From Minisyncoccota bacterium (GTDB taxonomy: Bacteria; Patescibacteriota; Minisyncoccia; Phycocordibacterales; CAJBRS01): a stretch of 64,000 nucleotides of DNA. Both the position numbers and the translations under genes were made by a program. How positions within the stretch are numbered: the stretch's first letter is position 1; each line of letters begins with the position of its first letter. Where the stretch lies: NCBI GenBank assembly GCA_017881075.1, contig JADGRH010000003.1, positions 64,682 to 128,681 of the forward strand, written 5' to 3'. The notes beneath the pieces were generated by a model, which had not been told where the DNA came from, did not search any database, and saw nothing but the letters and a program-made list of their open reading frames with translations. Below are positions 219 to 55,824 of this stretch, piece by piece.

Positions 219-554
219 CTAAAAATGTATTAGTGGTTTAAATCCTAATTTATTTTGTAATATAAAACCAATTGTTATAAGCAGAATTGGTACAATAACT
301 CTGATGACGAATTTTGTCGTTTTAGAATTTAAATTAGGATAGATTTTTCTTAAATAATACCAAATAAAAGTTTCGTTTCTATCTTTACCCATTTCTATGT
401 GGGTTAAAATACATCCATCAATTATCCAATACTGAATTTGCAAAAGAATAACTCCCAAAATGATTATTTTCCAGCTAATAAGTAAAGGTGAAAGATATGC
501 TGGTATTAACAGTAGTACATGTATCCAAAACCATAATCCAAATTCTTTTTTCAT
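219..554 (-). CDS. small integral membrane protein (possibly DUF2784-like)
   Basis: ORF-track 219..653 overlaps the tRNA; the internal ATG at 554 (MKKEFGLWFWIHV...) removes the overlap. About 3 hydrophobic helices; 'DGCILTHIE' resembles the CPLT motif of DUF2784 (from memory). Confidence 0.5.
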   Translation of the reverse strand: MKKEFGLWFWIHVLLLIPAYLSPLLISWKIIILGVILLQIQYWIIDGCILTHIEMGKDRNETFIWYYLRKIYPNLNSKTTKFVIRVIVPILLITIGFILQNKLGFKPLIHF

Positions 555-569
555 AAATTTAAAATATAT

Positions 570-659
570 TGGCGGAGAGAGCGAGATTCGAACTCGCGGT
601 ACCCTTTCGAGCACACAGACTTTCCAGGTCTGCCCATTAAACCGCTCTGGCATCTCTCC
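570..659 (-). tRNA. tRNA-Ser (anticodon GGA), type II with long variable arm, CCA encoded
   Basis: The reverse complement folds as a cloverleaf: acceptor GGAGAGA/TCTCTCC, anticodon stem CAGAC/GTCTG with loop CTGGAAA, long variable arm, T-arm GCGAG-TTCGAAT-CTCGC, 3' GCCA. Confidence 0.9.
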
Positions 660-858
660 AAGATAATTAAAACTAACCTATTTTTGACACAAATTCAATT
701 CAGAGATGTCCGAAACGGGGTGTCGGACACCTCGTTTCGGACATTCAATTTGACTTGACAATAACTTCCATCAGGAGTAATTTCAAAAATAGATGATTGG
801 TCGAGTGATCAGCCAGTACTAAGACAAACCAAACAAGAACAAAAAAGAAAGGTTCATT

Positions 859-1455
859 GTGAACTTGAAGAAAAAAATAATGGTGTCCGTGGTAGCTGCC
901 GCGATAGTGGTGGCCACTATGGGGATTAGTGAGCATTTCCTTAACCAAGCAGAGATTCGCTTCAATCAACGACAGGAAGCAGAACTTGGCGCCAAACAGT
1001 TTCGTCAGGATGTCCAGCCGATGCTCGACAGCTTCTATTTTGAACACAACTTGCAGGCTGGAGACATGGCTCTTCATGCGGTGGCGTTGGAGAGGGCTCG
1101 TCTCGCAACCTACTACCATGGCGGCTTCGCCCATTACTTATGGGAATCGAATGACCCGATTGACCAAAAGAATGTTCCTCTCGTCGTTATGGCCCGGGAC
1201 AATCTACAACAGTATGTGATCGTCTCTGGAAAGATAACCTATCTGAAAGATGGTGATTGTCAGGAAGAACTCCGATTGGTTATCTATACCTTCCCGCACA
1301 AGAAAGGTGATCCACGACGTCGCGTTGACGAAAATGGGCAAGTGAGTGCCTTTATTAACGAAAAATGGCTCGTCGATCTGGATCAAACTCTTGCAGACAA
1401 AATCCGGGCCCAAGCTTATCTGGCACTTATTGATCGACCGCTTCATATACTCTGA
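859..1455 (+). CDS. hypothetical protein with N-terminal signal/anchor helix
   Basis: 198-aa ORF; N-terminus MNLKKKIMVSVVAAAIVVATMG is hydrophobic. GC visibly higher than neighbours; no motif recognised. Confidence 0.6.
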   Translation: MNLKKKIMVSVVAAAIVVATMGISEHFLNQAEIRFNQRQEAELGAKQFRQDVQPMLDSFYFEHNLQAGDMALHAVALERARLATYYHGGFAHYLWESNDPIDQKNVPLVVMARDNLQQYVIVSGKITYLKDGDCQEELRLVIYTFPHKKGDPRRRVDENGQVSAFINEKWLVDLDQTLADKIRAQAYLALIDRPLHIL

Positions 1456-1583
1456 TGGATGTAGTCGGCGCCCATACTTCAAGTCCTTCACAACGCGACG
1501 TTGTGGAGGCTTTTTATTTTCCTCATGAAATTTTTTTAAAGTTTTGGTTTGAATAATCCTCGGCGATAGGCGATACTCTATCC

Positions 1584-3242
1584 ATGACTCAAGCAGAAGC
1601 ACTGGATATCTTAAAGATGGGACACAATGTATTTATCACCGGCGCAGCTGGAAGTGGCAAAACTCACACTCTGCGTGCCTATATTGATTATTTGAACAAG
1701 AGCAATGCGAGCGTTGCCATTACCGCATCCACGGGAATTGCGGCTACGCACATTGGTGGTAGCACCATTCACTCATGGAGCGGCCTGGGAGTCCGCGATT
1801 CTCTTTCCGAGCAGGACTTAAGTGAAATGGAAGAGCGACAATATCTCTGGCGACGATATGATCAAGTAAGGATTTTAATAATTGATGAAGTTTCAATGCT
1901 CCATCATTTTCGATTTGATCTTTTGGATAAAATTTGCCGATTTTTCAAAAGAAACGATGCCCCCTTCGGGGGCATGCAAATAGTGCTTTGCGGTGACTTC
2001 TTCCAACTGCCGCCAGTCACCATAATGGGGGAGCCGGAGGCAAGCTTCATTCATAAATCAGATGTTTGGGAAGAGATGAATTTGAAGATCTGCTATCTCT
2101 CCGAACAGCATCGCCAAAATATTGAAGACGAATATTTTAAAATCCTAAATGAGATCCGCGGGAATGATGTCGGCACGGATACATACGAACTCCTACAATC
2201 CCGTCTTAACCAAGAATCCGAATCAAAAATTCCGCCGACTCGTCTCTACACTCACAACATTGATGTTGATGCCGTGAATAACCGCGAGCTCGGAAAGATT
2301 GCGGGGGAGGCAAAAATTTACGCCATGTCTTCCAAAGGAAGGGCCGCTATAGTGGAGACTTTGAAAAAGAGTTGTCTTTCACCGGAGAAACTTTCTCTTA
2401 AAATTGGAGCCAAAGTAATGTTCGTTAAAAATAATTTTGAGAAACATTATGTTAATGGAACATTGGGGATAGTTGTGGCTTATGATTCAGCCGGTTATCC
2501 TATTGTGGAAACTCTTTCTGGAAAGAGGATACTGGCCACACCGGAGAGCTGGATGATAGAAGAAGAGGGCAAGATTAAAGCCGAGATCAATCAAGTGCCG
2601 CTCCGGCTCGCCTGGGCTATTACTGTGCATAAAAGCCAAGGAATGAGCCTTGATGCGGCAGAAATGGACCTATCAAAATCTTTCATTAAAGGGATGGGAT
2701 ATGTGGCTCTTTCGCGAGTGCGTAGTTTAAAAGGCTTGAAGCTACTCGGTATCAATCAAATGGCTCTGCGAGTAGATGAAGGTGTTTTTGAATACGATCA
2801 AACTCTCCGATCACTTTCAAAACAAAGCCAAAGTGAGTTAAAGAAGATGACCGCAAGCGAAATGAAAAAAGAGCAGGGAGAATTTCTGGCGAAAGTTGCT
2901 GGCTCCAAAAAAATTAAGGAAGAAAAAATAGCCACTCATCACAAAACCAAAAATCTTTTGCTCCAGAAGCTCTCTTTGGAAGAAATGGCAGAGGCGCGTG
3001 GGATGACCACCGAGACTATTGTCAGTCATATTGAGAAATTACTAGAGGAAGATCCGTCGTTTGATGTTCAGTATCTTTTCAATGCTAATTTTACTGATGA
3101 GCGTTTTCAGAAAATTGAAAAAGCTTTTGAAAAATCTTTAGCCAAGAATGGCGACTATCGTTTGGCGCCGGTGCGAGGTCTGCTTGGGCCCGATTTTGAT
3201 TATTTGGAACTGCGCATAGCGAGGTTGTTTTTGGGAAAGTAG
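1584..3242 (+). CDS. PIF1/RecD-family SF1 DNA helicase
   Basis: Walker A GAAGSGKT, Walker B LIIDEVSM, CGDFFQLPPV, and AITVHKSQG near the C-terminus. C-terminal helical HTH-like tail as in bacterial Pif1-like helicases. Confidence 0.85.
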   Translation: MTQAEALDILKMGHNVFITGAAGSGKTHTLRAYIDYLNKSNASVAITASTGIAATHIGGSTIHSWSGLGVRDSLSEQDLSEMEERQYLWRRYDQVRILIIDEVSMLHHFRFDLLDKICRFFKRNDAPFGGMQIVLCGDFFQLPPVTIMGEPEASFIHKSDVWEEMNLKICYLSEQHRQNIEDEYFKILNEIRGNDVGTDTYELLQSRLNQESESKIPPTRLYTHNIDVDAVNNRELGKIAGEAKIYAMSSKGRAAIVETLKKSCLSPEKLSLKIGAKVMFVKNNFEKHYVNGTLGIVVAYDSAGYPIVETLSGKRILATPESWMIEEEGKIKAEINQVPLRLAWAITVHKSQGMSLDAAEMDLSKSFIKGMGYVALSRVRSLKGLKLLGINQMALRVDEGVFEYDQTLRSLSKQSQSELKKMTASEMKKEQGEFLAKVAGSKKIKEEKIATHHKTKNLLLQKLSLEEMAEARGMTTETIVSHIEKLLEEDPSFDVQYLFNANFTDERFQKIEKAFEKSLAKNGDYRLAPVRGLLGPDFDYLELRIARLFLGK

Positions 3243-3310
3243 TCTTGAAAGGAATTGAACAAAAACCAAAACTAAGTAATAATGGAATGGTTATATAATA
3301 AATCAAAACA

Positions 3311-3730
3311 ATGAGCGAAAAATTTGAACCAAATCCATTGACTCCTGAAACACCTCCTGAGAAATCGATTCAGAGACTTGCTGAAGAGATTTACAAGAAG
3401 AGACCAAAGGATGGCCCTATGATTATTATGGATGTGGACGAGACAAAAAGAGAAGCTCTTTTGACTGCAGTGTCAGTGCTCTGTAAGACTGGTGAAGTTG
3501 AGGAACCAATGCCTCCAATATTTTTTGTTAACGATAAAGAAGATCTTGCTTCATTAGCCCCGAAATTAGTGGATGACGAAAGCACAATAAGACAAGCAAT
3601 GGAAAAACTTCAGCTCGCCGATTTTCCCGAACCAATCTTAGTCGATGAGAAACCTCCAGAACCATGGCACCCAAAAGCTAAACATCCTCCCTGGGAAAAA
3701 CGTCCCAAGAAAAAAGGAAGGAGAAAATAA
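3311..3730 (+). CDS. hypothetical protein, Pro/Lys-rich C-terminus
   Basis: 139-aa ORF ending 8 nt before the next gene; no recognisable domain. Confidence 0.5.
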   Translation: MSEKFEPNPLTPETPPEKSIQRLAEEIYKKRPKDGPMIIMDVDETKREALLTAVSVLCKTGEVEEPMPPIFFVNDKEDLASLAPKLVDDESTIRQAMEKLQLADFPEPILVDEKPPEPWHPKAKHPPWEKRPKKKGRRK

Positions 3731-3737
3731 ATAAAAA

Positions 3738-4505
3738 ATGGCTCAAAATTTATATCAGTTTTTAAAAAACATAGGCATTTCTCAAAAAGAGGTAAATGTT
3801 TACATCTATCTTTTGTCGGTGGAATCAGCTCTGCCAATGGAAATTGCTAAGGAGACCAATCTTAAGAGGTCCACTGTATATGTAATCCTCGAACTCCTAA
3901 AAGAGAAAGGGTTAGTGCGCGAGGTAGAGCGAGGCAAACGCTCCGCCTATATCTCGGAAGACCCGGAAAGAATCAGATTTCTTTTGGAACAACTTCGACT
4001 TCAGACGGAAAATAGTATTAAGGGATTGAATATCATAATTCCTCAACTGAAAGCCACTCTTCGAAAAGAAGGGGAGCCGCCACTGATCAGATTCTTTGAA
4101 GGAGAAAAAGCGGTTCAGGTCTCAATGGAGGAATTGGCGGACAATCCTAAATTTAGAAAAGAGTTAAATTATGATGTTTTTCCACTTGAGCTAATCTATA
4201 AATTATTCCAGAGAAAGAATTTGCGAAAATATATTAATCTTCGCATTCATAACAATGAAAACTTCAAAATCCTCTATACATCAGATGAAGGAGGGTTAAC
4301 CAACGCGGAGACACACGGACAAGAAGCGATCAAGATTGACCAAAAAGAATTTCCTCTATCATGTGACATCGCCATCTTTGAAGATGAGGTTAGAATTCAT
4401 ATGTTGGGTAAACCTATTTACGGCATATTGATTAAAAACTTGGAATTGGCCCAGACTCTCACTAGTATTATCAAATTGGCAATAAAAGGAGCCAAGGTAA
4501 ATTAG
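3738..4505 (+). CDS. TrmB-family winged-helix transcriptional regulator
   Basis: N-terminal wHTH (LKNIGISQKEVNVYIYLL...MEIAKETNLKRSTVYVILELLKEKGLV) with a long C-terminal domain, the typical TrmB architecture. Confidence 0.7.
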   Translation: MAQNLYQFLKNIGISQKEVNVYIYLLSVESALPMEIAKETNLKRSTVYVILELLKEKGLVREVERGKRSAYISEDPERIRFLLEQLRLQTENSIKGLNIIIPQLKATLRKEGEPPLIRFFEGEKAVQVSMEELADNPKFRKELNYDVFPLELIYKLFQRKNLRKYINLRIHNNENFKILYTSDEGGLTNAETHGQEAIKIDQKEFPLSCDIAIFEDEVRIHMLGKPIYGILIKNLELAQTLTSIIKLAIKGAKVN

Positions 4506-6210: not shown

Positions 6211-6312
6211 AATTTAACTTTTCTTTATGGGAGATTCATCACCCATTTATATATTTAAGTAATAGCAGAAAGATTTGCAAGGATTTGGGTATTCCTGAAG
6301 AAGATTAAAATT

Positions 6313-6346
6313 AAAAAATCCGGCCGAAGCATTTGTCGGCCGGATT
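6313..6346 (-). terminator. conserved hairpin terminator, copy 1 of 3
   Basis: aaaaaatccggcc-N12-ggccggatt. 9-bp stem, 12-nt loop, U-run on the minus strand; 15 nt after the receiver gene stop. Confidence 0.8.
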
Positions 6347-6361
6347 ATCAAAACCATTCGC

Positions 6362-6793: not shown

Positions 6794-7705
6794 ATGGATC
6801 AATCTCAAAACTCCACTAGAGAATATTCTGCCATTAGCCCAACATCTCGCAGCTCATTTTGGATGAAAACTTTCACCGACATTCCTTACGTGCGGGAAAT
6901 ATACGACGAGCTGGAAAAAGGGAAGCAGAGTGGAGCGGAAAGCAAAATCAGGGATTACGGAATCAATCATGTTGGTCTCTCAAGTATTGCTCCATATTTT
7001 GAGGCGAGATACTTAATCATTAATAGATTATTGAAAGAAGTTGGAGCGACACAGATTATTGAATTAGCTTCCGGCCTCACTCCTCGGGGTCTTGAGCTTA
7101 CCAAAGATCCAAATATCACTTTCATCGAATTAGACCTCCCTGATGTAATCGAAGAGAAAAAGAAAATAGTGGAAAATATTATAAGAGAGCATAAAATCGG
7201 CGATCGTAACAATTTGTATCTGGAAGCAGGAAGCGCCCTGGAAGAAGCGGATATCATGAAAGCCGCCTCTCATTTTGATGAAAAGAAAGAGATCGCTATT
7301 ATTAATGAAGGATTACTTCGCTATCTGAAAAGAGACGAACAGGCAAAAATGGCTCAGGCGATCTTACCCGTGCTTCAAAAATTCGGGGGAGTATGGATCA
7401 CCCCTGATATTGGCATCAGAGATAAAATGCTGGCAGGACAAGCGAAATTGTCGCCGATATTCATAGACAGAACTAAAAAGTTGGAAAAAATGACGGGCGC
7501 TGGAAATTTTTCCGACAACCTTTTCGCCGATGCTGCAGAAGCCAAGGCAATCTATGAAAAACTAGGATTTGAGATAGAGATGCATACTTACTCTGAAGTA
7601 TCCGATCAACTCGTTTCACCCACTAAACTCGGTCAACCAAAAGAGATTACAGACTCACTTATGGAATGGAGCAAGGTCTTTGTGATGCACCCAAAGACCA
7701 AATAA
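6794..7705 (+). CDS. class I SAM-dependent methyltransferase (LCMT/TcmP-like)
   Basis: Motif I-like IIELASGLTPRG and acidic post-I FIELDLPDV; length and layout match leucine-carboxyl/O-methyltransferase-like proteins. Confidence 0.65.
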   Translation: MDQSQNSTREYSAISPTSRSSFWMKTFTDIPYVREIYDELEKGKQSGAESKIRDYGINHVGLSSIAPYFEARYLIINRLLKEVGATQIIELASGLTPRGLELTKDPNITFIELDLPDVIEEKKKIVENIIREHKIGDRNNLYLEAGSALEEADIMKAASHFDEKKEIAIINEGLLRYLKRDEQAKMAQAILPVLQKFGGVWITPDIGIRDKMLAGQAKLSPIFIDRTKKLEKMTGAGNFSDNLFADAAEAKAIYEKLGFEIEMHTYSEVSDQLVSPTKLGQPKEITDSLMEWSKVFVMHPKTK

Positions 7706-7737
7706 AAAATCCGGCCAGAGAATTCACGGGCCGGATT
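7704..7737 (-). terminator. conserved hairpin terminator, copy 2 of 3
   Basis: aaaaaatccggcc-N12-ggccggatt. The stem overlaps the TAA stop of 7736..8089; also sits just after the convergent methyltransferase gene. Confidence 0.8.
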
Positions 7738-8089
7738 ACGAAAAACTTCTGAGTCCTAACAGCATGATGATGGTATTTACCAAATCGTCAGGATGAGCCT
7801 CATGGGTGCATCGAAAATAATTCAACATAATCTGTCGGATACCGGGACTTTTGTCCACAACCACAATGGGTCCATTGCAATGAGGAGGAAGACTCTTCAG
7901 AAGTGCTCCGGTGTTGAACGTTTTTGACCCAACACAAGTTTCGACGGCTACAAGGTCATAACGATCAGATTCCTCAATCGCGAATCTAACGTCGTAGGCG
8001 TAGCTTGCGCTGACGTCATATTCCTCCAACCTCCTTTGCCACTCGGTCGCCAGGTCATTGTCATTAGTCACAATTAAGATATTCTTCAT
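7736..8089 (-). CDS. receiver-like single-domain protein, degenerate (Glu at phospho-acceptor position)
   Basis: Paralog of 6362..6733 and 9503..9856. YDLVAVETCVG replaces DLVVVDG; conserved C-T-H motif near the C-terminus. Confidence 0.65.
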   Translation of the reverse strand: MKNILIVTNDNDLATEWQRRLEEYDVSASYAYDVRFAIEESDRYDLVAVETCVGSKTFNTGALLKSLPPHCNGPIVVVDKSPGIRQIMLNYFRCTHEAHPDDLVNTIIMLLGLRSFS

Positions 8090-9350: not shown

Positions 9351-9470
9351 AGTGCTTTCCTCGGTTTGTGTTGTTCTTCTCTTCTGAAATCATATTACTT
9401 AAATAGGGGATTAGTTCAAGTTATGGGTTTTCCAAATTTTGAGCGGGTTTTTCACGAAATTGAAGAAAAT

Positions 9471-9504
9471 AAAAAATCCGGCCTGTGAATCGGTCGGCCG
9501 GATT
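9471..9504 (-). terminator. conserved hairpin terminator, copy 3 of 3
   Basis: aaaaaatccggcc-N12-ggccggatt; the stem overlaps the TAA stop of 9503..9856. Confidence 0.8.
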
Positions 9505-9856
9505 AAGAATAGCGCTTCAATTCAAGAAGAGTGACGATGAGAGACACCAACAAGTCCGGATGCGCGCCATGTGTGCATCCAAAATCTCTAATCATTGCCT
9601 GACGGATCTCCGAACTCTCGTCCACGATCACTATTGGTCCATTAGAATGGGCAGGGAGACTCTTGAGGAGTGGGCCCGTATTGAATGTCTTGGAGCCAAC
9701 GCAGGTCTCTACCGCCACGAGGTCATAACGGTCTTGATTGGAAACCGCATAACTTACGTCATAGGCGTAGCTTGCGTTGACTGCGTATTCATCCAGTCTA
9801 TTCCGCCAATCGGACAGATGGTCATTGTTAGTAGACACAATTAGGATAAACTTCAT
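9503..9856 (-). CDS. receiver-like single-domain protein, degenerate (Glu at phospho-acceptor position)
   Basis: Close paralog of 7736..8089 (shared YDLVAVETCVGSKTFNTG.LLKSLP, GCTH.AHPD). Confidence 0.65.
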   Translation of the reverse strand: MKFILIVSTNNDHLSDWRNRLDEYAVNASYAYDVSYAVSNQDRYDLVAVETCVGSKTFNTGPLLKSLPAHSNGPIVIVDESSEIRQAMIRDFGCTHGAHPDLLVSLIVTLLELKRYS

Positions 9857-25568: not shown

Positions 25569-26024
25569 ATGAAATTCAAGTCCATTTTGATCATTATTGT
25601 CGTTGTTTTGATTGTGGTGACGTTATCTTTTTTATATTTCTCTCATTCTCCCTCGCAACAAAAAAACTACGGATTTGAGCCACTTTCTATCGGACAGAGC
25701 ACTGTTAATGTAGAAATCGCCAACACCGAAGCTAAAAGAACTTTAGGCTTGGGTAATCGTTCCACTCTGTTAGAAAATAATGGCATGCTCTTTGTATTTG
25801 ATAAACCGGGTACCTATGGTTTTTGGATGAAGGATACGAATTTTCCGCTAGATTTTATCTGGATTGATGAAAATAAAAAAATTATTGACATCACCAATGA
25901 TGTTTTACCAGAAACGTACCCGAAAGTTTTCTATTCGTCCAGTCCGGTGCTCTATGTCTTGGAGGTAGGGGGTGGATGGGCCGAATCTCACGGAATCAAA
26001 ATTGGGGCAGAGGTTGGTTTCTAA
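25569..26024 (+). CDS. DUF192 domain protein
   Basis: N-terminal TM; MLFVFDKPGTYGFWMKDTNFPLDFIWID matches DUF192. Confidence 0.8.
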   Translation: MKFKSILIIIVVVLIVVTLSFLYFSHSPSQQKNYGFEPLSIGQSTVNVEIANTEAKRTLGLGNRSTLLENNGMLFVFDKPGTYGFWMKDTNFPLDFIWIDENKKIIDITNDVLPETYPKVFYSSSPVLYVLEVGGGWAESHGIKIGAEVGF

Positions 26025-26167
26025 AAATTGACGGCAAAAGAGCCCTATTTCCTAGGCTCTTTTGCCGTCGCCGTTTACATTTAAAAATTTTCATTTCCGT
26101 CTGAGGAATTTCCTTGCTTCGGTATAGAAATTCAGCTTTCATTGATGTAGAATGGTGGAATAAAGTC

Positions 26168-28921: not shown

Positions 28922-29932
28922 ATGCCACTAATCGGAAAAGCGTCGCCGGAGGATATGAATTTACACCCAATGAAGTATCAGTGGGCCTATGATCTTTATA
29001 ATCAAGCAGTTCGAAATACATGGTTTCCTCATGAGATTGCTTTGAAGGAAGACTTGGAAGATTGGGAAAAGATGACGGAGGACGAAAGACACGCAGTGAA
29101 ATTCCTGATGGCCTTTTTTAATCCGGCCGAGCTGATCGTAAATCGCTCCATCGCTCTCGGCATTTATCCGTATCTGAAGTCGCCGGAGTGCCATCTCTAT
29201 CTAGCCAAGGTGATGTGGGAGGAGGCTAATCATTGCGTTGCTTTTGAGTATGTTCTAGAGACCTTTCCGCTCGATCGCGAAAAAGTTTTCGGCATTCATC
29301 TGGAAGTGCCCTCAATGAAGGCTAAGGAGGATTATATTTTTCGCTACATGAAACGCATGACCGAAAACACCTTGGATATTGAAACAGTAGAAGGGAAGAA
29401 GGATTTCATCCGCAACCTTGTGGCAACTAACATTGTCATGGAAGGCATCTGGTTTTATTCCGGTTTCATGGTGGCTCTTTCCTTTCGTCAGCGCAATCAG
29501 CTTCGCAATTTTGGCTCCATGATCAACTGGGTTTTGCGAGACGAGTCACTTCACTTAAAATTTGGCATCAATCTCATTCATACCATCCTGGAAGAGAACG
29601 CCGAGTTAATTACCGAAGAATTTGCCGCCGAGATTCGCAATATCGTTATTGAAGGAGTGGACAAAGAAGTGGCCTATAACAAGGATCTCTTTCCAAATGG
29701 TATTCTTGGTTTAAATGCCGACTATGTTAATCAGTATGTGCAGTATGTGGCTGACAGGCGACTGGAAGAGTTGGGAATGGAGAAACATTACAATGCTACT
29801 AATCCGGCCAAGTGGATGAGCACTGCAACTGATGTTTTTGAATTGGTTAATTTCTTTGAGGCGCAAAACACTAGCTACGAAGTGGATGCGAGAGCGCATT
29901 CGGAGAAAAAGAAAGATGAACCAGCCGTTTAA
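28922..29932 (+). CDS. nrdB: ribonucleoside-diphosphate reductase beta subunit
   Basis: Di-iron ligand motifs WEEANHCVAFEY and LRDESLH; about 336 aa. Confidence 0.9.
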   Translation: MPLIGKASPEDMNLHPMKYQWAYDLYNQAVRNTWFPHEIALKEDLEDWEKMTEDERHAVKFLMAFFNPAELIVNRSIALGIYPYLKSPECHLYLAKVMWEEANHCVAFEYVLETFPLDREKVFGIHLEVPSMKAKEDYIFRYMKRMTENTLDIETVEGKKDFIRNLVATNIVMEGIWFYSGFMVALSFRQRNQLRNFGSMINWVLRDESLHLKFGINLIHTILEENAELITEEFAAEIRNIVIEGVDKEVAYNKDLFPNGILGLNADYVNQYVQYVADRRLEELGMEKHYNATNPAKWMSTATDVFELVNFFEAQNTSYEVDARAHSEKKKDEPAV

Positions 29933-29940
29933 GGACGAAA

Positions 29941-30008
29941 CCTACAACTTTTTTAGAGACTAAGACTTGGGCAAACGCCCCGGAGTGGTCTCTAAAAAAG
30001 TTCGTAGG
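29941..30008. repeat. 68-nt conserved hairpin element, copy A
   Basis: ~20-bp stem with one bulged G closing a ~27-nt loop. The reverse complement matches 55728-55795, with all differences compensatory. Confidence 0.8.
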
Positions 30009-30057
30009 TGAGTCATTAAACGGACTTGTCTTATTTAAAAAATTTTATATAATAGAC

Positions 30058-30457
30058 TCTTCTTGAATCGGGTAATTGCTCCGCCACCTAAAAAGGGCGG
30101 GGAGGAAAGTCCGAACACAGGCCCTTCACCAAAATTGGTGAAGGGAAGAGTAGCGGGTAATACCCGTCTGGAGCAATCCACGAGGTGCGAACAGAGACGA
30201 ACCGGTTAAGTCCGGGTGAAACGGCTAAATCCTTACTTCTGTGCAAGGCCGCGCGCCAATTTTGTCCGCTAGAGGCGGTTACAAAATTGAGCGTCCCGAG
30301 ATTTTCGAGGGATTGATCCTTCGACAAGCTCAGGGCACTCAATCTTGCAGCCACCTGCAGTGGGCAAGATTGGTGAGTGCCGCTTGACTCCGAGAGTAAT
30401 CGAGGAGCTAGATAAATAATTATCGATAACAGAATTCGGCTTATAGATTCAAGAAGA
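30058..30457 (+). ncRNA. rnpB: RNase P RNA (bacterial type A)
   Basis: GAGGAAAGTCCGAACAC (CR-I) and ACAGAATTCGGCTTATAG (CR-V). P1 pairing tcttcttgaatc (30058-) / gattcaagaaga (-30457). Promoter TTGTCT-16-TATAAT at 30026-30053. Confidence 0.9.
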
Positions 30458-30463
30458 CAAATC

Positions 30464-30496: not shown

Positions 30497-30596
30497 ATTT
30501 GCATCGTCTTTTCAAGATGTTATAATAAATGAAAGCTAATGAAAGAATTTGCATCGTCTTTTCAAAATGTTATAATAAATGAAAGCTAATGGAAAA
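30497..30596 (+). repeat. 2 x 50-bp tandem duplication of promoter/start region
   Basis: atttgcatcgtcttttcaaRatgttataataaatgaaagctaatgRaaRa twice; includes an extended -10 tgttataat. Only copy 2 opens into the long ORF. Confidence 0.85.
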
Positions 30597-32985
30597 AATT
30601 GAAATCAAAACAGAAGAAGTTGTTCCGGAGAGAAATATTTTAACTACCATCCCTCATGTTCTGGTCGGAGCCTTATTGTTTCTGTTGCCAATATTTTTTA
30701 TCCCATCACCTCTTATTGCTTTTGGTTACGGTAAAATGATAATTGTGGCGGTGGTTGTTCTAATCTCACTTTTTAGCTGGATCGTCATTGTTTTTAAAGT
30801 TGGTAAGCTAACCTTGCCGATCAATTGGCTCTCTCTTTCTATTGTAGCTATTCCAATAATTTTTTTATTGGCCGCCATCTTTTCCCCTAATAGAGCAACT
30901 TCACTTATAGCCTCCGGTCTTGAACCTGGCACCTTCAGTTTCATCTTACTACTCTTTCTCTTAATGTTTCTGGTTTCCGTCTTTGTTCGAAACAAAAAAA
31001 ATATTTTTTCTTGCTACCTTTGGTTTGGAGTCGGGTTTATTGTTCTGGCCATTTATCAGATACTTCATTTGTTTTTAGGACCAAACTTTTTATCCTTTAA
31101 TTATTTTACCGATGTTGCCTCCAGTCCTTTGGGCAAATGGAATGATTTAGCCATCTTTGCGGGTGCTGCTGTTTTACTGACGCTTGTCAGTCTGGAGCTT
31201 TTGGTTTTAAGTCGTTTGGCGAAAAGTTTACTTTACACCCTTTTAATTATCGAATTATTTCTTTTAGCCATAACAAACTTTACCATCATTTGGGCTACTC
31301 CCGTCAGTATCATTACTCTCATCGGTTTTTTTGCCCTGCTCTTTTTTGTATATTTCATTTCATCAAATCACCTTTCCACAAATCAGGCTCCGGAGATGGG
31401 AAATTATTACCAGGCGACGACCCCACAAGGACTGGGGCACCGCCGTCTACCCTGGCCTTCATTAATAGTGTTGGTTTTTGCGGTGATCTTTACCCTGGGG
31501 GCCGGCCCGATTGGATCTTCCATCACTTCATTTTTTAAAATTAATGTTCTGGACGTCTCACCCACCTGGCAGTCCACTTTCACGGTGGCCAAGGCTAGTA
31601 TTTCTCGAAGCCCGATTTTGGGAATTGGACCCAACCGTTTTAGTAGTGAATGGAATCTTTCAAAACCGGACGGAGTCAATGCCACCGACTTCTGGAGCAC
31701 CGATTTTGACTCTGGAGTAGGAACGATTCCGACATTCTTAGTCACTACCGGCTCTTTGGGAATCTTAGCCTGGCTTATCTTTTTAGGCTTTCTTCTTTAC
31801 TTGGGTGGAAAAGCGATCTTTTCTGGGGTTAAAGATCAGCTCTCTCTTTATTTGATTATTTCCTCTTTCTTTGTGGCTATCTATCTATGGATTGTCCATA
31901 TTATGTATGTGTCGGGTGTTGTGATGTTTATCTTTGCCTTTATTTTTACCGGTCTCTTTTTAGCTTCTCTTTTTCGGGAGGGTATGCTTAAGGAGAGGAC
32001 CATTTTTTATGTTCAAGACTCTCGGAAAGGGTTTGTGACAATCTTGCTTTTAGTACTAATTTTAATCGGAGTGATTAGCGGAGGGTATTTATTATCAGAA
32101 AAAGTTTTGGCCTCGGTTTATGCCAACAGAGGAGTTACAACTCTCAATTCGGCAGATGTTCAAGGGGCCGAAAATTACACCCTTCAGGCAATTAACGCTG
32201 ATAAAAATCCGGCATATTATCGTTTACTTTCCCAGATTGAATTAGTCAAAATTAGTAATATTCTTCAGCAAGGCAGTCTCACTGCCGATATTGTCAAAAC
32301 CCAATTTCAGAATGGTCTGACTAACGCTGTTTCTGCCGCTTCTACCGCTACCAGTCTAGACCCAACCGATTATCAGAATTGGCTCTCTCTCGGGGCTGTT
32401 TATGAAAATGTCATTCCCCTCGGTGTAGCGGGGGCTTCAGGACAAGCGGCAAGTGCTTATCTGGAAGCCTTGAAGAGAAGTCCACAGAATCCATCTATAT
32501 ATCTAATGTTGGCTCGAGCAGAGTTAGCAAATAAGAATTATGATAAATCCAAGGAATATATTCTGGATGCTCTTCGGTTAAAAAATAATTATCTTGATGC
32601 CATTTATCTTTTGACACAACTTGATCTTTCTCAAGGTAACGGAGCGGCCGCTCTGGCTGATTTAGGTGTAGCGGTCACAGTAGCTCCAAATGATGCAGGA
32701 CCCTATTTCCAGATCGGCGTTTTAAATTATAATTTAGGTAATTATGAACCGGCCGCCACCGCCCTCACTCAATCTCTACGTTTAGTACCCAATTATGCGG
32801 ATGCAAAATACTATCTCGCTCTTAGCGACTATAAACTGAACCAAAAAGATGAAGCCACCAGACTTTTTCAGGAGCTTGTTGATGCTAACCCTATTAATAC
32901 CACTCTTACCGCCATTTTGGACAACATTAAGGGTGGTCGCGACCCTCTTTCAACTTCCACCGCGGCTACCAGTAGTAAAAAATAA
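30589..32985 (+). CDS. polytopic membrane protein (O-antigen-ligase/Wzy-like) with C-terminal TPR repeats
   Basis: More than 10 TM helices over ~500 aa, then TPR-like repeats (AYLEALKRSPQNPSIYLMLARAEL..., YFQIGVLNYNLGNYEPAA...). Confidence 0.65.
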   Translation: MEKIEIKTEEVVPERNILTTIPHVLVGALLFLLPIFFIPSPLIAFGYGKMIIVAVVVLISLFSWIVIVFKVGKLTLPINWLSLSIVAIPIIFLLAAIFSPNRATSLIASGLEPGTFSFILLLFLLMFLVSVFVRNKKNIFSCYLWFGVGFIVLAIYQILHLFLGPNFLSFNYFTDVASSPLGKWNDLAIFAGAAVLLTLVSLELLVLSRLAKSLLYTLLIIELFLLAITNFTIIWATPVSIITLIGFFALLFFVYFISSNHLSTNQAPEMGNYYQATTPQGLGHRRLPWPSLIVLVFAVIFTLGAGPIGSSITSFFKINVLDVSPTWQSTFTVAKASISRSPILGIGPNRFSSEWNLSKPDGVNATDFWSTDFDSGVGTIPTFLVTTGSLGILAWLIFLGFLLYLGGKAIFSGVKDQLSLYLIISSFFVAIYLWIVHIMYVSGVVMFIFAFIFTGLFLASLFREGMLKERTIFYVQDSRKGFVTILLLVLILIGVISGGYLLSEKVLASVYANRGVTTLNSADVQGAENYTLQAINADKNPAYYRLLSQIELVKISNILQQGSLTADIVKTQFQNGLTNAVSAASTATSLDPTDYQNWLSLGAVYENVIPLGVAGASGQAASAYLEALKRSPQNPSIYLMLARAELANKNYDKSKEYILDALRLKNNYLDAIYLLTQLDLSQGNGAAALADLGVAVTVAPNDAGPYFQIGVLNYNLGNYEPAATALTQSLRLVPNYADAKYYLALSDYKLNQKDEATRLFQELVDANPINTTLTAILDNIKGGRDPLSTSTAATSSKK

Positions 32986-43539: not shown

Positions 43540-44793
43540 TTATTTTAAGGCTAGATTTCCATTAGCTCCGAAATCGGATTTCGGGTTTTTGTCACTTAAA
43601 TAATTGAAATAACCAGCCATGGCGATCATAATGGCGTTGTCGGTGGAGAGGTGGGAGTCGGGAATTAGGAGTTGGGTGTCAGGAGAAGCAGCGATTAAAT
43701 CTTGAAAGGAGCGGCGGAGGTGGGTATTGGCGATTACACCTCCGCCGACTATTAGAGTTTTAATATCAAATTCTTCAATGGCTCGTTTGGTTTTGGTAAT
43801 CAATACTTCAGTGACCGAATCTTCAAATTCTCTGGCCATTTTTGCTTTCCATTCTGGATCTGATTTTTCTTTGTCGGTCATTTTTTTAATTGTGTAAAGG
43901 ACGGCAGTTTTCAATCCGGAAAAAGAGAAATCGTAATCGTTTGATTTGATCATTGGTCTGGGCAAAACAAAGTTGCAGAGGTTTGACCTCTGCAAGTGAT
44001 CTGCAGAGGTCAGACCTCTGCAACGCTCTAAATCGGCCAATTTTGAGATTTCAGGCCCGCCAGGGTAGGGAAGATCCAGCATTCTAGCCACCTTATCAAA
44101 AGCTTCTCCAACCGCGTCATCACGAGTTTGACCAATGATTTTGTATTTTTTCCATGCTTCAATTAAGACTAGCTCAGTATGGCCACCGCTAATGAGAAGT
44201 GCTAAAGCTGGAAAAGAAAAGCTGACAGTTGGTAACTGATAGCTTTCAGCTTTAGATTTTTTTGGTAATAAAGCTGACATAATGTGTCCTTCCATGTGAT
44301 TAGTAGGAATGACAGGCAGATCCCAAACGAATCCCAACGCCTTGGCAAAATTAATACCGACCCAAAGTGCTGGCTCAAGACCGGGGCCGGTGGTGACGGC
44401 AATGGCTTCAATATCCGGCTTAGGAATTGTCGGAATAAATTTAAGAAATTGTTCGAGTAATTCAGGCTCGCGTTCTAGGATCTTTTTCAAACCCCCTCCA
44501 ACTCCCCCTTGTCTAAGGGGGAGAGGAAGCCCCCCCTCCTCAAACGAGGAGGGGGTAGGGGGTGGTGTTGAACCCAATTTATCTAATAACTCTTTTAACA
44601 ACGGAATCAGATTTCTAGAATGCTCTCTCTTCGCCATCATCGGATACACTCCGCCATATTTTTCATGAATTTTAGTCTGGGAATTAAGCGCTTCAGCAAT
44701 CACTTTAAATTGAGGTCGCTCAAAACCGCCATTGGATTCCACGATAGCGAGCGCTGTTTCATCACAGCTAGTTTCAATACCTAGGATTTTCAT
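43540..44793 (-). CDS. tsaD: tRNA N6-adenosine threonylcarbamoyltransferase TsaD, with two insertions
   Basis: MKILGIETSCDETALAIV, NHMEGHI, GGVIAN. 417 aa vs a typical ~340. Confidence 0.9.
   Translation of the reverse strand: MKILGIETSCDETALAIVESNGGFERPQFKVIAEALNSQTKIHEKYGGVYPMMAKREHSRNLIPLLKELLDKLGSTPPPTPSSFEEGGLPLPLRQGGVGGGLKKILEREPELLEQFLKFIPTIPKPDIEAIAVTTGPGLEPALWVGINFAKALGFVWDLPVIPTNHMEGHIMSALLPKKSKAESYQLPTVSFSFPALALLISGGHTELVLIEAWKKYKIIGQTRDDAVGEAFDKVARMLDLPYPGGPEISKLADLERCRGLTSADHLQRSNLCNFVLPRPMIKSNDYDFSFSGLKTAVLYTIKKMTDKEKSDPEWKAKMAREFEDSVTEVLITKTKRAIEEFDIKTLIVGGGVIANTHLRRSFQDLIAASPDTQLLIPDSHLSTDNAIMIAMAGYFNYLSDKNPKSDFGANGNLALK
43973..44022. repeat. two tandem palindromes inside the tsaD CDS
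   Basis: ttgcagaggtttgacctctgcaa (43973-43995) and tgcagaggtcagacctctgca (44002-44022); they encode part of ...CRGLTSADHLQRSNLCN. Confidence 0.8.
44502..44554. repeat. two GC-rich perfect hairpins inside the tsaD CDS
   Basis: ctccccctt-gtct-aagggggag (44502-44523) and ccccctcctc-aaac-gaggaggggg (44531-44554); they encode PSSFEEGGLPLPLRQGG. Confidence 0.8.
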
Positions 44794-55027: not shown

Positions 55028-55705
55028 TTATTTAACTGCAGTTTCTGAAACACTACCGGGGAGAATAGCAATTCTGTCAGGTGGCAGTAATCTCAAGAAA
55101 GCTCTTCCAACAATCTCATTTCGCGAGACTGGTCCCCATGAACGGGAATCATAACTTACCGGTCGATTATCACCCATAACAAAATATTGGTCGGGACCGA
55201 GGGTAACAGTCATATTTTTTTCACCTTGGTATTTGATGTATGACTCGTCCAACTGAAATCCTTCGAGATTAGAAGCATTTTTTATGATTATTTTGTCATT
55301 GCGAATTTCCAAAGTCTCATTAGGCAGACCAATAACTCTTTTAATATAAAAAACCTTTTGATCAAGTGGCGGACGGAAGATTACCACATCGCCACGGTTC
55401 GGATTATGTAGGTGATACGACAATTCATCCACAATCAAATATTCTCCCCCGGAAAAGTTTGGTTCCATGGAAGTGCCGACAACAATAAATGGTTGAGCAA
55501 CGAAGAAGCGCAGAGGTACAAGCACTACCAAGATGAAAAAAACAAATTTCAGAAGCTCTTTGAAAAAACTGGCACTCTTAAATGTTTTATTAGTTGGAAT
55601 TTCTACTGATCTTGCCATTTTTTCACTCTCAATCTCTTCATTCATGGCCACATAATATAGGCAAAGAGTGCTTGACACAAGGATATAAGCCGTGTTATGG
55701 CTCAT
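55028..55705 (-). CDS. lepB: signal peptidase I
   Basis: VVGTSMEPNF (Ser box), IKRVIGLP, GDNRPVSYDSRSWG. The alternative start at 55645 (MNEEIES) is equally plausible. Confidence 0.85.
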   Translation of the reverse strand: MSHNTAYILVSSTLCLYYVAMNEEIESEKMARSVEIPTNKTFKSASFFKELLKFVFFILVVLVPLRFFVAQPFIVVGTSMEPNFSGGEYLIVDELSYHLHNPNRGDVVIFRPPLDQKVFYIKRVIGLPNETLEIRNDKIIIKNASNLEGFQLDESYIKYQGEKNMTVTLGPDQYFVMGDNRPVSYDSRSWGPVSRNEIVGRAFLRLLPPDRIAILPGSVSETAVK

Positions 55706-55727
55706 TTTGTCCTACTTCGAAATCTCG

Positions 55728-55795
55728 TCTACGAACTTTTAAACAGACCACTCCGGGGCGTTTGCCCAAGTCTTAGTCTGTTTAAAAGTTGTAGA
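55728..55795. repeat. 68-nt conserved hairpin element, copy B
   Basis: tctacgaacttttaaacagac-[loop cactccggggcgtttgcccaagtctta]-gtctgtttaaaagttgtaga. Lies between the divergent lepB and pth genes. Confidence 0.8.
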
Positions 55796-55824
55796 CTTCG
55801 CTTCCGAAGTAGTAAGATACAAAG

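Follow-up and report, generated by a model that had tools for sequence, protein, structure and literature searches.

Two hairpins beside rnpB and pth in a Minisyncoccota genome probably belong to a selfish palindromic element present in many copies across CPR/Patescibacteria

Why would the compact genome of a Minisyncoccota bacterium carry the same long hairpin twice, once between nrdB and rnpB and once between lepB and pth? The question concerns a stretch of 64,000 nucleotides, which was analyzed as a whole and is called here the window. The preliminary description of this DNA left three possibilities, namely a small RNA motif with a defined structure, a cruciform to which a protein binds, or hairpin repeats of a mobile family. 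The last of these fits the evidence reported below, whereas an RNA motif is disfavored: the hairpins belong to a large multi-copy family, with filled and empty orthologous sites and with in-frame copies in unrelated essential genes, in both orientations. We propose that they are probably copies of a small, non-autonomous and selfish palindromic insertion element, of which many copies exist across the CPR/Patescibacteria, and not regulators of the genes next to them.

As first described, two 68-nt hairpins are present, at positions 29941-30008 (copy A) and 55728-55795 (copy B), the second being the reverse complement of the first. If the strand is taken as the one reading the family consensus CTCCGGGGC..GCCCAAGTC, copy A lies on the minus strand and copy B on the plus strand. 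The 68-nt unit of copy A, whose termini are CCTACGAAC and GTTGTAGG, has its arms at 29941-29960 and 29988-30008, with one unpaired base, around a conserved 27-nt center at 29961-29987 (minus strand). The arms of copy B span 55728-55748 and 55776-55795 and its center 55749-55775 (plus strand). Within the center of copy A sits a mini-hairpin which, in plus-strand letters, reads GGGC at 29969-29972, a loop at 29973-29976 and GCCC at 29977-29980. The reported identity of the two centers stood up, CACTCCGGGGCGTTTGCCCAAGTCTTA being found exactly twice in the window, also when three mismatches are allowed, for an expectation of zero in 100 shuffles with the same tolerance. Re-reading both copies likewise confirmed that their eight differences all fall in the 20-bp stem, where they amount to four compensated pairs. 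The bulged G said to be common to both copies needs a qualification: the unpaired base is indeed retained, but whether it is a G depends on the strand. It is a G where CTAC-G-AAC is read, on the minus strand of the window for copy A and on the plus strand for copy B, and the opposite strand has a C in its place.

Nor is 68 nt the whole length of the structure. On both copies, unpaired spacers of 8-9 nt on each side separate the hairpin from an outer inverted repeat of 8 bp. Copy A thereby extends over 29925-30023 on the minus strand, with its outer arms CCGTTTAA at 29925-29932 and TTAAACGG at 30016-30023 and two spacers of 8 nt. Copy B covers 55712-55812 on the plus strand and is composed of the outer arm CTACTTCG (55712-55719), a spacer, the 68-nt hairpin, the spacer CTTCGCTTC and the outer arm CGAAGTAG (55805-55812). 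The outer repeats of the two copies are unrelated to each other in sequence. When both strands of both copies were folded as RNA and compared with shuffled sequence, the z-scores ranged from -6.2 to -7.7; DNA folding over a longer span gave -7.7 to -8.7. A covariance model of the element scores copy A at 73.3 bits (E = 1.5e-20) and copy B at 71.2 bits (E = 6.7e-20). An unfiltered search of the whole window with this model returned only these two copies, the next-best match being an ordinary hairpin at 17.9 bits.

Both copies stand close to neighboring genes. The stop codon of nrdB (29930-29932) lies inside the left outer arm CCGTTTAA of copy A, whose 68-nt hairpin begins 8 nt past it, and the plus-strand promoter of rnpB (30026-30053; TTGTCT, a 16-nt spacer and TATAAT) comes directly after the copy, outside the element, ahead of rnpB itself (30060-30459). 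Copy B is located between divergent genes and is flanked by the conserved divergent lepB/pth promoter block (55646-55702, assigned to neither strand; CATGG..ATATAGGCAAAG..TTGACACAAG), which is again outside the element. This copy had been placed just upstream of lepB, with a start at 55705; comparison with relatives places the start codon at 55646-55648, so that the distance is about 80 nt, and copy B lies downstream of the conserved TTGACA box facing pth. No T-run follows either copy and neither has a terminator-like site; no promoter was found within the element in these two copies. A separate assembly of the same organism breaks within copy B, L199 starting inside the center.

The proximity to rnpB, nrdB, lepB and pth is incidental, since in relatives these genes stand in the same order although the element is missing. 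For copy A we compared 80 relatives with 83-92% identical NrdB, and the 405 kb of DNA surrounding their nrdB genes contain no copy at all. Five of them, in which rnpB comes directly after nrdB, have an empty site, where a short spacer leads from the stop codon straight into the aligned -35 and -10 boxes. At the other site, the order aaRS-lepB | pth and the divergent promoter block are kept in L200 and L201 without the element, and compared with the empty L200 site the window holds 84 extra nucleotides. They comprise the hairpin, the spacer to its right and a duplicate of the native left flank, inserted in inverted form, which makes up the right outer arm of copy B. L200 nevertheless has a copy of its own directly after pth (2142-2210). 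It has the same termini CCTACGAACTTTT ... AAAAGTTGTAGG and the same bulge as the window copies, together with a different but compensated inner stem, a C-G swap in the mini-hairpin, spacers of 8 nt and an outer repeat of 7 bp.

The preliminary description had advised looking for the loop beyond the window. We scanned one genome per prokaryotic species with CTCCGGGGCNNNNGCCCAAGTC, a degenerate 22-nt pattern derived from the center, and obtained at least 111 matching stretches of genome DNA, for about 17 expected by chance according to our own estimate from the size of the collection. Among the matches listed, about 106 are true copies with arms, from some 70 species-level CPR genomes, and all of the armed ones come from CPR lineages: Saccharibacteria including Nanosyncoccus, Paceibacterota, Minisyncoccia, Kaiser-, Jorgensen-, Nomura-, Adler- and Peregrinibacteria and the Parcubacteria group. 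The five listed matches devoid of arms look like chance matches; four are from non-CPR bacteria (Pseudomonadota, Acidoferrales, Hymenobacter and Actinomycetes) and one is from a CPR Peribacteria genome (L082). The sources of the carrier genomes go from goat and sheep gut through to groundwater. Judging by its Pth homologs, the window organism is itself a CPR bacterium of Paceibacterota-like affinity. A single genome can harbor several copies (six loci from I-1_bin-176, five from OY970216.1), with up to three of them within 1.3 kb (L001), and the covariance model detected 14 further copies with variant centers in the same loci.

The consensus common to the copies is C-R-CTCCGGGGC-RYTN-GCCCAAGTC-TTA. 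Nineteen of the 22 pattern positions are invariant in 105 copies, although these positions are fixed by the search pattern; conservation of the center being in part built in by this seed, we judged it from about 15 copies found independently, by the model or by the LigA comparison described below. Four loop positions were left free in the pattern and yet are limited to R-Y-T-N. Vectors of the phage type were considered and rejected, the center pattern giving no match in 2.9 million viral contigs. Rfam returned no match on the element at gathering thresholds and, at permissive E-values, only generic long-hairpin microRNA models with 8-18 bits against thresholds of 50-249. We found no description of such an element from CPR in the literature, also when searching by the center sequence, and the family is apparently undescribed.

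Inverted arms flank the center in every one of the about 106 copies, with a median of 25 paired bases (range 9-50). The ten or so nucleotides nearest the center fall into a few subfamilies, GAGAC/GTCTC in the window and CTCGGGCC/GGCCCTTCG or AAAAAGTGTG/CCCACTTTTT elsewhere, while the distal arm sequence is specific to each copy and yet complementary. A gapless alignment of 59 columns and 105 copies revealed covariation in all 16 arm pairs tested: 79% of the cells are paired, as against 57% in shuffles, none of 500 shuffles reaching 79%, and the proportion falls to 37-54% when the register is slid. The covariation argument made from copies A and B in the preliminary description is correct and is strongly reinforced by this result, but covariation is no proof of an RNA. 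One pair of the mini-hairpin covaries as well; as the search pattern fixes this motif, the test was possible only on independently found copies. Its third pair is swapped from G-C to C-G (GGGCC-N4-GGCC) in L017, L062, L064, L081, L200 and L197. On the strand reading TAAGACTTGGGC..GCCCCGGAG, additional pairing of CUU to GAG over a 2-nt bulge is available to the center, and in the L197 variant the U.G of this helix has become C-G.

Three layers can be distinguished in the element. The 27-nt center is nearly constant across the superphylum and forms, on one strand, an irregular hairpin (UAAG / CUU:GAG / 2-nt bulge / GGGC-N4-GCCC). The inner arms and the termini are conserved within a lineage; in that of the window they read CCTACGAACTTTT / AAAAGTTGTAGG with one bulged base, termini and bulge being common to three copies (A, B and that of L200). 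The outer arms are unique to each copy.

The folding is not symmetrical between strands. Mismatches of the distal arms, read on the pattern strand, are A.C in 89 cases and G.T in 32, an A.C on that strand being a G.T on the opposite one; these counts include orthologous copies that share some mismatches and are not fully independent. The better-folding strand, plus for copy A and minus for copy B in the window, has an advantage of 3-6 kcal/mol. The A.C:G.T ratio is 26:7 in copies lying sense in an ORF, 53:21 in intergenic copies and 4:2 in copies antisense to an ORF. The same mismatch bias being present in every class, it follows the center and not transcription. This suggests that what folds back is one particular strand of the DNA, or else an RNA distinct from the host mRNA.

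In Saccharibacteria, the 120 closest LigA proteins (77-99% identical) differ in length at one and the same site and can be sorted into classes: empty alleles (663-671 aa; PLRI-NADEVEVRGE), alleles with this element and 24 more residues, short footprints, and larger inserts with other GC-rich centers. L027 has in this place an 80-nt palindrome where homologs with 94% and 90% identical proteins have 8 nt, a net insert of 72 nt or 24 aa relative to the empty allele. The whole palindrome being extra, both inner arms belong to the insert. We therefore rejected the idea that the inner arms are inverted copies of the local target, and kept it for the outermost arms. Copies are gained and lost at orthologous sites. 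The same sites in LigA, UvrB and Tgt are occupied again and again. Instead of repeated insertion, the cause could be an old copy inherited vertically and lost many times, or alleles exchanged through transformation.

Orthologous sites also differ in the orientation and in the extent of the palindrome. Between L027 and L107 at the LigA site, and between L005 and L064 at the Tgt site, the distal arms are homologous and the center is reversed. The flipped block consists of the center, the proximal stem and its asymmetric internal loop, which is what recombination between the arms would produce. The footprint in L198 (VSDERIPSE) retains only the outer arms of an insert of the L195/L197 type. The palindrome can also grow outward. 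In L197, its arms end in 16 bp that come from the native right flank (S-E-I-E-V), which recurs on the left as an inserted inverted copy (ISIS), and the right outer arm of copy B is a similar case. From what is known of quasi-palindrome mutagenesis, such flips, deletions and growth would be expected if the template were switched in a fold-back at a strong hairpin. This would offer a DNA-level route to changes that look compensatory.

About a quarter of the copies are not intergenic. Under a strict test, in which an ORF had to extend without a stop for 280 nt or more to either side, 24 of the 98 copies that could be tested lie within genes; 14 have one orientation to the gene and 9 the opposite one. 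The genes concerned are essential ones (LigA, UvrB, ValRS, Tgt, TrmD and TsaD), and in each of them the reading frame continues through the element. The center is read in four frames (RSGALAQVL, ALRGASPSLT, KTWASAPER and LRLGRAPRSG), whereas its two stop-containing frames are never used by in-gene copies. Since four frames are used, in both orientations, the conservation is at the nucleotide and not at the protein level. Only in-frame, stop-free copies persist in essential genes, which argues that these copies are translated. An AlphaFold2 model of a filled LigA is poor overall (mean pLDDT of 57) and shows the insert (about residues 158-187) as coil with a pLDDT of 24-31, so that it is uninformative on a surface position of the insert. 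As for the intergenic copies, each of the four possible arrangements of the genes on either side is represented, 8 of the 53 classified, copy B included, being between divergent genes.

How could such an element be maintained? We propose that it is selfish DNA that would act as a fold-back on one DNA strand, the one reading TAAGACTTGGGC..GCCCCGGAG, and whose center would be recognized by a conserved host activity acting in trans. Taken together, the near-invariant center, the conserved bulge and the strand bias suggest that a conserved activity of the host recognizes the fold-back of a single strand. Complementarity of the arms may be kept by intrastrand template switching or repair within the palindrome, by selection for a stable hairpin, or by both, and such upkeep would account for the four compensatory pairs between copies A and B. 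These two copies would have no dedicated role for nrdB, rnpB, lepB or pth and would simply fill two of the few tolerant intergenic gaps of a compact genome.

A linked transposase or nuclease was looked for within the 8-kb loci around the copies and rejected at that distance; a partner gene farther away may exist. We clustered 761 ORFs from these loci, and the ten most recurrent families are all housekeeping according to Pfam: class I aaRS, PBP1, FtsA, PNPase, ComEC, RecG, RecJ, RecA, TruB and a cell-surface repeat protein. Neither a transposase near the copies nor a donor-recipient pair with identical arms was found in these loci. A k-mer scan for a terminal motif or target site gave a modest enrichment of CTCCGC/CTCGC in a subset of copies only, and a same-sense CTYCGC motif flanks a subset of copies. 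A link between orientation and replication was also discarded: the GC skew of the window does not switch between the two copies, and on the closed 805-kb chromosome OY970216.1 the five copies are oriented minus, plus, plus, minus and minus along the map, with no simple replichore rule.

The main competitor of a selfish element is a DNA signal useful to its host, in which a hairpin or cruciform would present the center to a conserved CPR DNA-binding protein involved, for instance, in chromosome organization, in replication or repair, or in the processing of DNA taken up by competence, the copies being kept for their service. One can put to its credit a center that is nearly invariant across the superphylum while the arms are free to vary, a bias toward folding of one strand that is independent of transcription, a bulged base retained in three copies with differing inner stems, and the lack of a nearby transposase; ComEC, RecA, RecJ and RecG are among the recurrent neighbors, though this probably just reflects common gene order. 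Such a signal would not be expected, however, to be as patchy as no copy in the 405 kb from 80 relatives against two in our 64-kb window, nor to be either present or absent in close LigA alleles. The density is far too low and too uneven for a signal of the uptake type, and the insertions in essential genes, the central deletions and the alternative centers at one site resemble tolerated parasitism. We thus hold a host-serving signal to be unlikely. A structured RNA, cis-regulatory or small and non-coding, that acts on adjacent genes was the idea named first in the preliminary description, and the very stable fold, the extensive covariation and a wobble bias indicating one folding strand are all consistent with it, as are the positions of copy A in the likely 3' region of nrdB and of copy B between a conserved promoter and pth. 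On the other hand, the wobble-tolerant strand is antisense to the mRNA in 14 of the 24 in-gene copies, with the same bias (26:7), copies take either orientation to the flanking genes, those of the window would be transcribed in opposite senses, and orthologous sites flip orientation. Relatives with the same gene order do without the element, which has no Rfam match and no promoter of its own. An RNA with such a role is accordingly very improbable in our opinion.

Two further explanations were weighed. Transcription terminators, or hairpins stabilizing mRNA 3' ends, would explain why many intergenic copies start at or within a few bases of an upstream stop codon, why 26 of 45 stop codons are 23-45 nt before the center, at the foot of the arm, and why copy A begins 8 nt after that of nrdB. 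This closeness is nevertheless expected anyway for an element of 70-100 nt in very short intergenic gaps, and termination would be harmful to the quarter of copies that are inside essential ORFs. Neither window copy is followed by a T-run, and 8 of the 53 classified intergenic copies, copy B among them, are between divergent genes. We hold this proposal to be still less credible than an RNA acting on its neighbors. Finally, copies A and B are inverted and 25.7 kb apart, and one would wonder whether they are the inverted terminal repeats of a single mobile or invertible segment of about 26 kb, a possibility already raised in the preliminary description. The interval is made of housekeeping DNA with rnpB, six tRNA genes and housekeeping ORFs, each site is independently empty in relatives whose gene order is kept on each flank, and other genomes have single copies, some of them within genes. 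The evidence contradicts such a segment, to which we attach practically no credence.

If a selfish element is retained as the best explanation, one feature is still surprising. Purely selfish DNA seldom keeps a 27-nt center nearly invariant between lineages as distant as phyla, and this could mean that the element renders some service to its host. A more speculative hypothesis, which we consider rather doubtful, is that of a new kind of mobile or self-maintaining DNA without its own transposase: the CPR-wide 27-nt center would recruit a core host enzyme to a fold-back on one strand, and the palindrome would insert, flip, grow and shrink by template switching during replication. The center could otherwise be a superphylum-wide cis-signal for a CPR-specific DNA transaction, the in-gene copies then being by-products.

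The CPR/Patescibacteria make up a large share of bacterial diversity and their mobile DNA is little known. If our reading holds, one hairpin with a near-invariant center has spread through many of their lineages, and has time and again lengthened essential proteins, among them DNA ligase, UvrB and ValRS, by about 25 residues. In that case it would contribute to variation in protein length in CPR genomes and would be a cause of assembly breaks in metagenome bins, as the one at copy B, and a source of spurious structured RNA calls, besides a convenient lineage marker. A constant center implies a conserved partner molecule, and finding this partner could expose a CPR-specific DNA transaction. As for the annotation of the window, no regulatory role toward rnpB, nrdB, lepB or pth should be assigned to the hairpins.

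Parallels can be drawn with several known systems. Intrinsic terminators differ from the element by their T-run, lacking here, and by their position, since copy B lies between divergent genes and other copies inside ORFs. The GC-rich palindromic clusters of yeast mitochondria and the byp elements are short, mobile, GC-rich hairpins of AT-rich compact genomes that invade coding sequence, a description that also applies to the CPR element. However, ribosomes bypass byp elements, whose reading frame is therefore free, whereas every in-gene copy in CPR is in frame and free of stops, which argues for translation. The attC sites of integrons are recombination sites recognized in the form of folded single-strand hairpins; like the CPR element, they have stems of variable sequence and extrahelical bases, and they favor one strand. 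Their layout is the opposite, however, with conserved boxes where the stem begins and a variable middle, and attC sites are found in cassette arrays beside intI, whereas the CPR copies are single, among or inside housekeeping genes.

The REP/BIME-RAYT and IS200/IS605 systems share with the CPR element imperfect palindromes, hairpins formed on one strand and bulged bases as recognition features. REP elements carry a GTAG motif, which the CTAC...GTAG termini of the window lineage recall, but these termini are not general across the CPR family. REPs are extragenic with stems conserved within a genome, whereas CPR copies enter genes and their arms vary between copies of one genome (L001, L022, L041, L050 and L080). 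No RAYT and no TnpA/Y1 transposase is present among the ten most recurrent neighbor families of about 105 8-kb loci. Like MITEs, the CPR element is small, multi-copy and non-coding, with inverted ends and presence/absence between related genomes. It differs from them in that the same ten neighbor families contain no parent insertion sequence with matching ends, and in that its constant part is the middle and not the ends. Comparison of three filled sites with their empty counterparts brought to light no direct target-site duplication, but rather the addition of one flank in inverted form, while the CTYCGC motif noted above flanks a subset of copies in the same sense.

The closest parallel is with the Rickettsia palindromic elements (RPEs), short palindromic repeats found in frame in many unrelated genes of a reduced genome (PMC10969869). 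Like them, the CPR element is a short palindromic repeat that lacks a transposase of its own and recurs many times in one genome, the bacteria concerned being host-dependent and their genomes reduced. It too is found both between genes and in frame within unrelated housekeeping genes, to which it adds an extra peptide, its translation in CPR being predicted. The differences are nonetheless clear. RPEs are about 150 bp long and, within a family, conserved from end to end, the encoded peptide included, whereas only the 27-nt center is conserved in the CPR element, whose arms are copy-specific and whose peptide, read in four frames, is not conserved. Flipping of the center and growth of the arms are seen in CPR, and neither is mentioned for RPEs in PMC10969869. 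The hosts are CPR bacteria in one case and Rickettsiales in the other; we set the two apart by description, with no claim on a sequence relationship. The best-supported placement is thus that of an element which behaves most like the RPEs without being a member of them.

Seven element copies from other genomes, at loci L007, L009, L014, L020, L060, L086 and L104, have in common the outer arms GC(A/C)AA(A/C)C / G(T/G)TTGC, and they come from different phyla. Each of them also has the motif CT(C/T)CGC on both sides and in the same sense, which is similar to the 5' part of the element's centre (CGCTCCGG). The motif flanking the copies may be a target or cleavage motif, its k-mer enrichment being only modest. 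At L014, the protein encoded by positions 260-3766 is 1169 aa long and belongs to the class I aminoacyl-tRNA synthetases; its catalytic domain is split in two halves by a histidine-phosphatase domain (PF00300).

We also analyzed the start of lepB in the window (55646-55705). The longest lepB open reading frame starts at 55705; the real start is at 55646-55648, as indicated by conservation with the relatives (205, 203 and 211 aa) and by an aligned CATGG block. Therefore, on the basis of sequence comparison, the first 19 codons of the called frame are probably not translated.

Other hairpins and repeats are found in the window. A perfect hairpin of 16 bp, TGACGGCAAAAGAGCC-(10 nt)-GGCTCTTTTGCCGTCG, occupies positions 26029-26070, between the ORF 25569-26024 and nrdA, and its arm AAAAGAGCC is similar to the inner arm of the element, AAAAGAGAC. 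This hairpin may be an ordinary terminator, or else a remnant of the element that is devoid of its centre. A different hairpin repeat, AAAAAATCCGGCC-N12-GGCCGGATT, is present in three copies (6309-6353, 7700-7744 and 9467-9511) that display 78% identity among themselves, those at 7700 and 9467 being included within a longer repeat of 267 nt. A tandem duplication at 30497-30596, made up of two 50-nt units with 94% identity, begins immediately past the 3' end of rnpB and extends into the start of the ORF 30589-32985. Finally, a near-perfect palindrome of 23 bp, GTTGCAGAGGTTTGACCTCTGCA / TGCAGAGGTCAGACCTCTGCAAC, with a 7-nt centre, lies at 43972-44024 within the ORF 43540-44793 (minus strand).

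Nested and tandem forms were observed in other genomes. In a family member from JAKAHD010000002.1 (L075, 6699-6790), an extra hairpin, CCCACACCTATGGCATAGGTGTGGGG, is nested in the centre, 3' of AAGTC, and is followed by a second ACAAGTCTTA. This centre looks like a hairpin within a hairpin, produced by the insertion of one into the other. At one locus of Peribacteria (L057, CAZROM010000021.1, 5557-5718), a 75-nt unit that starts with the element's centre is repeated in tandem (2.2 copies) and adjoins a run of N. As for the LigA site of Saccharibacteria, where the L027 locus carries an element copy, two homologous loci (L195 and L196) display larger, two-hairpin centres between the same outer arms: hairpin 1 is GC-rich with the loop GTCGCCAC, and a mini-hairpin has the loop TGCC. 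These two centres suggest that the hairpin modules nested at the LigA hotspot form a wider superfamily.
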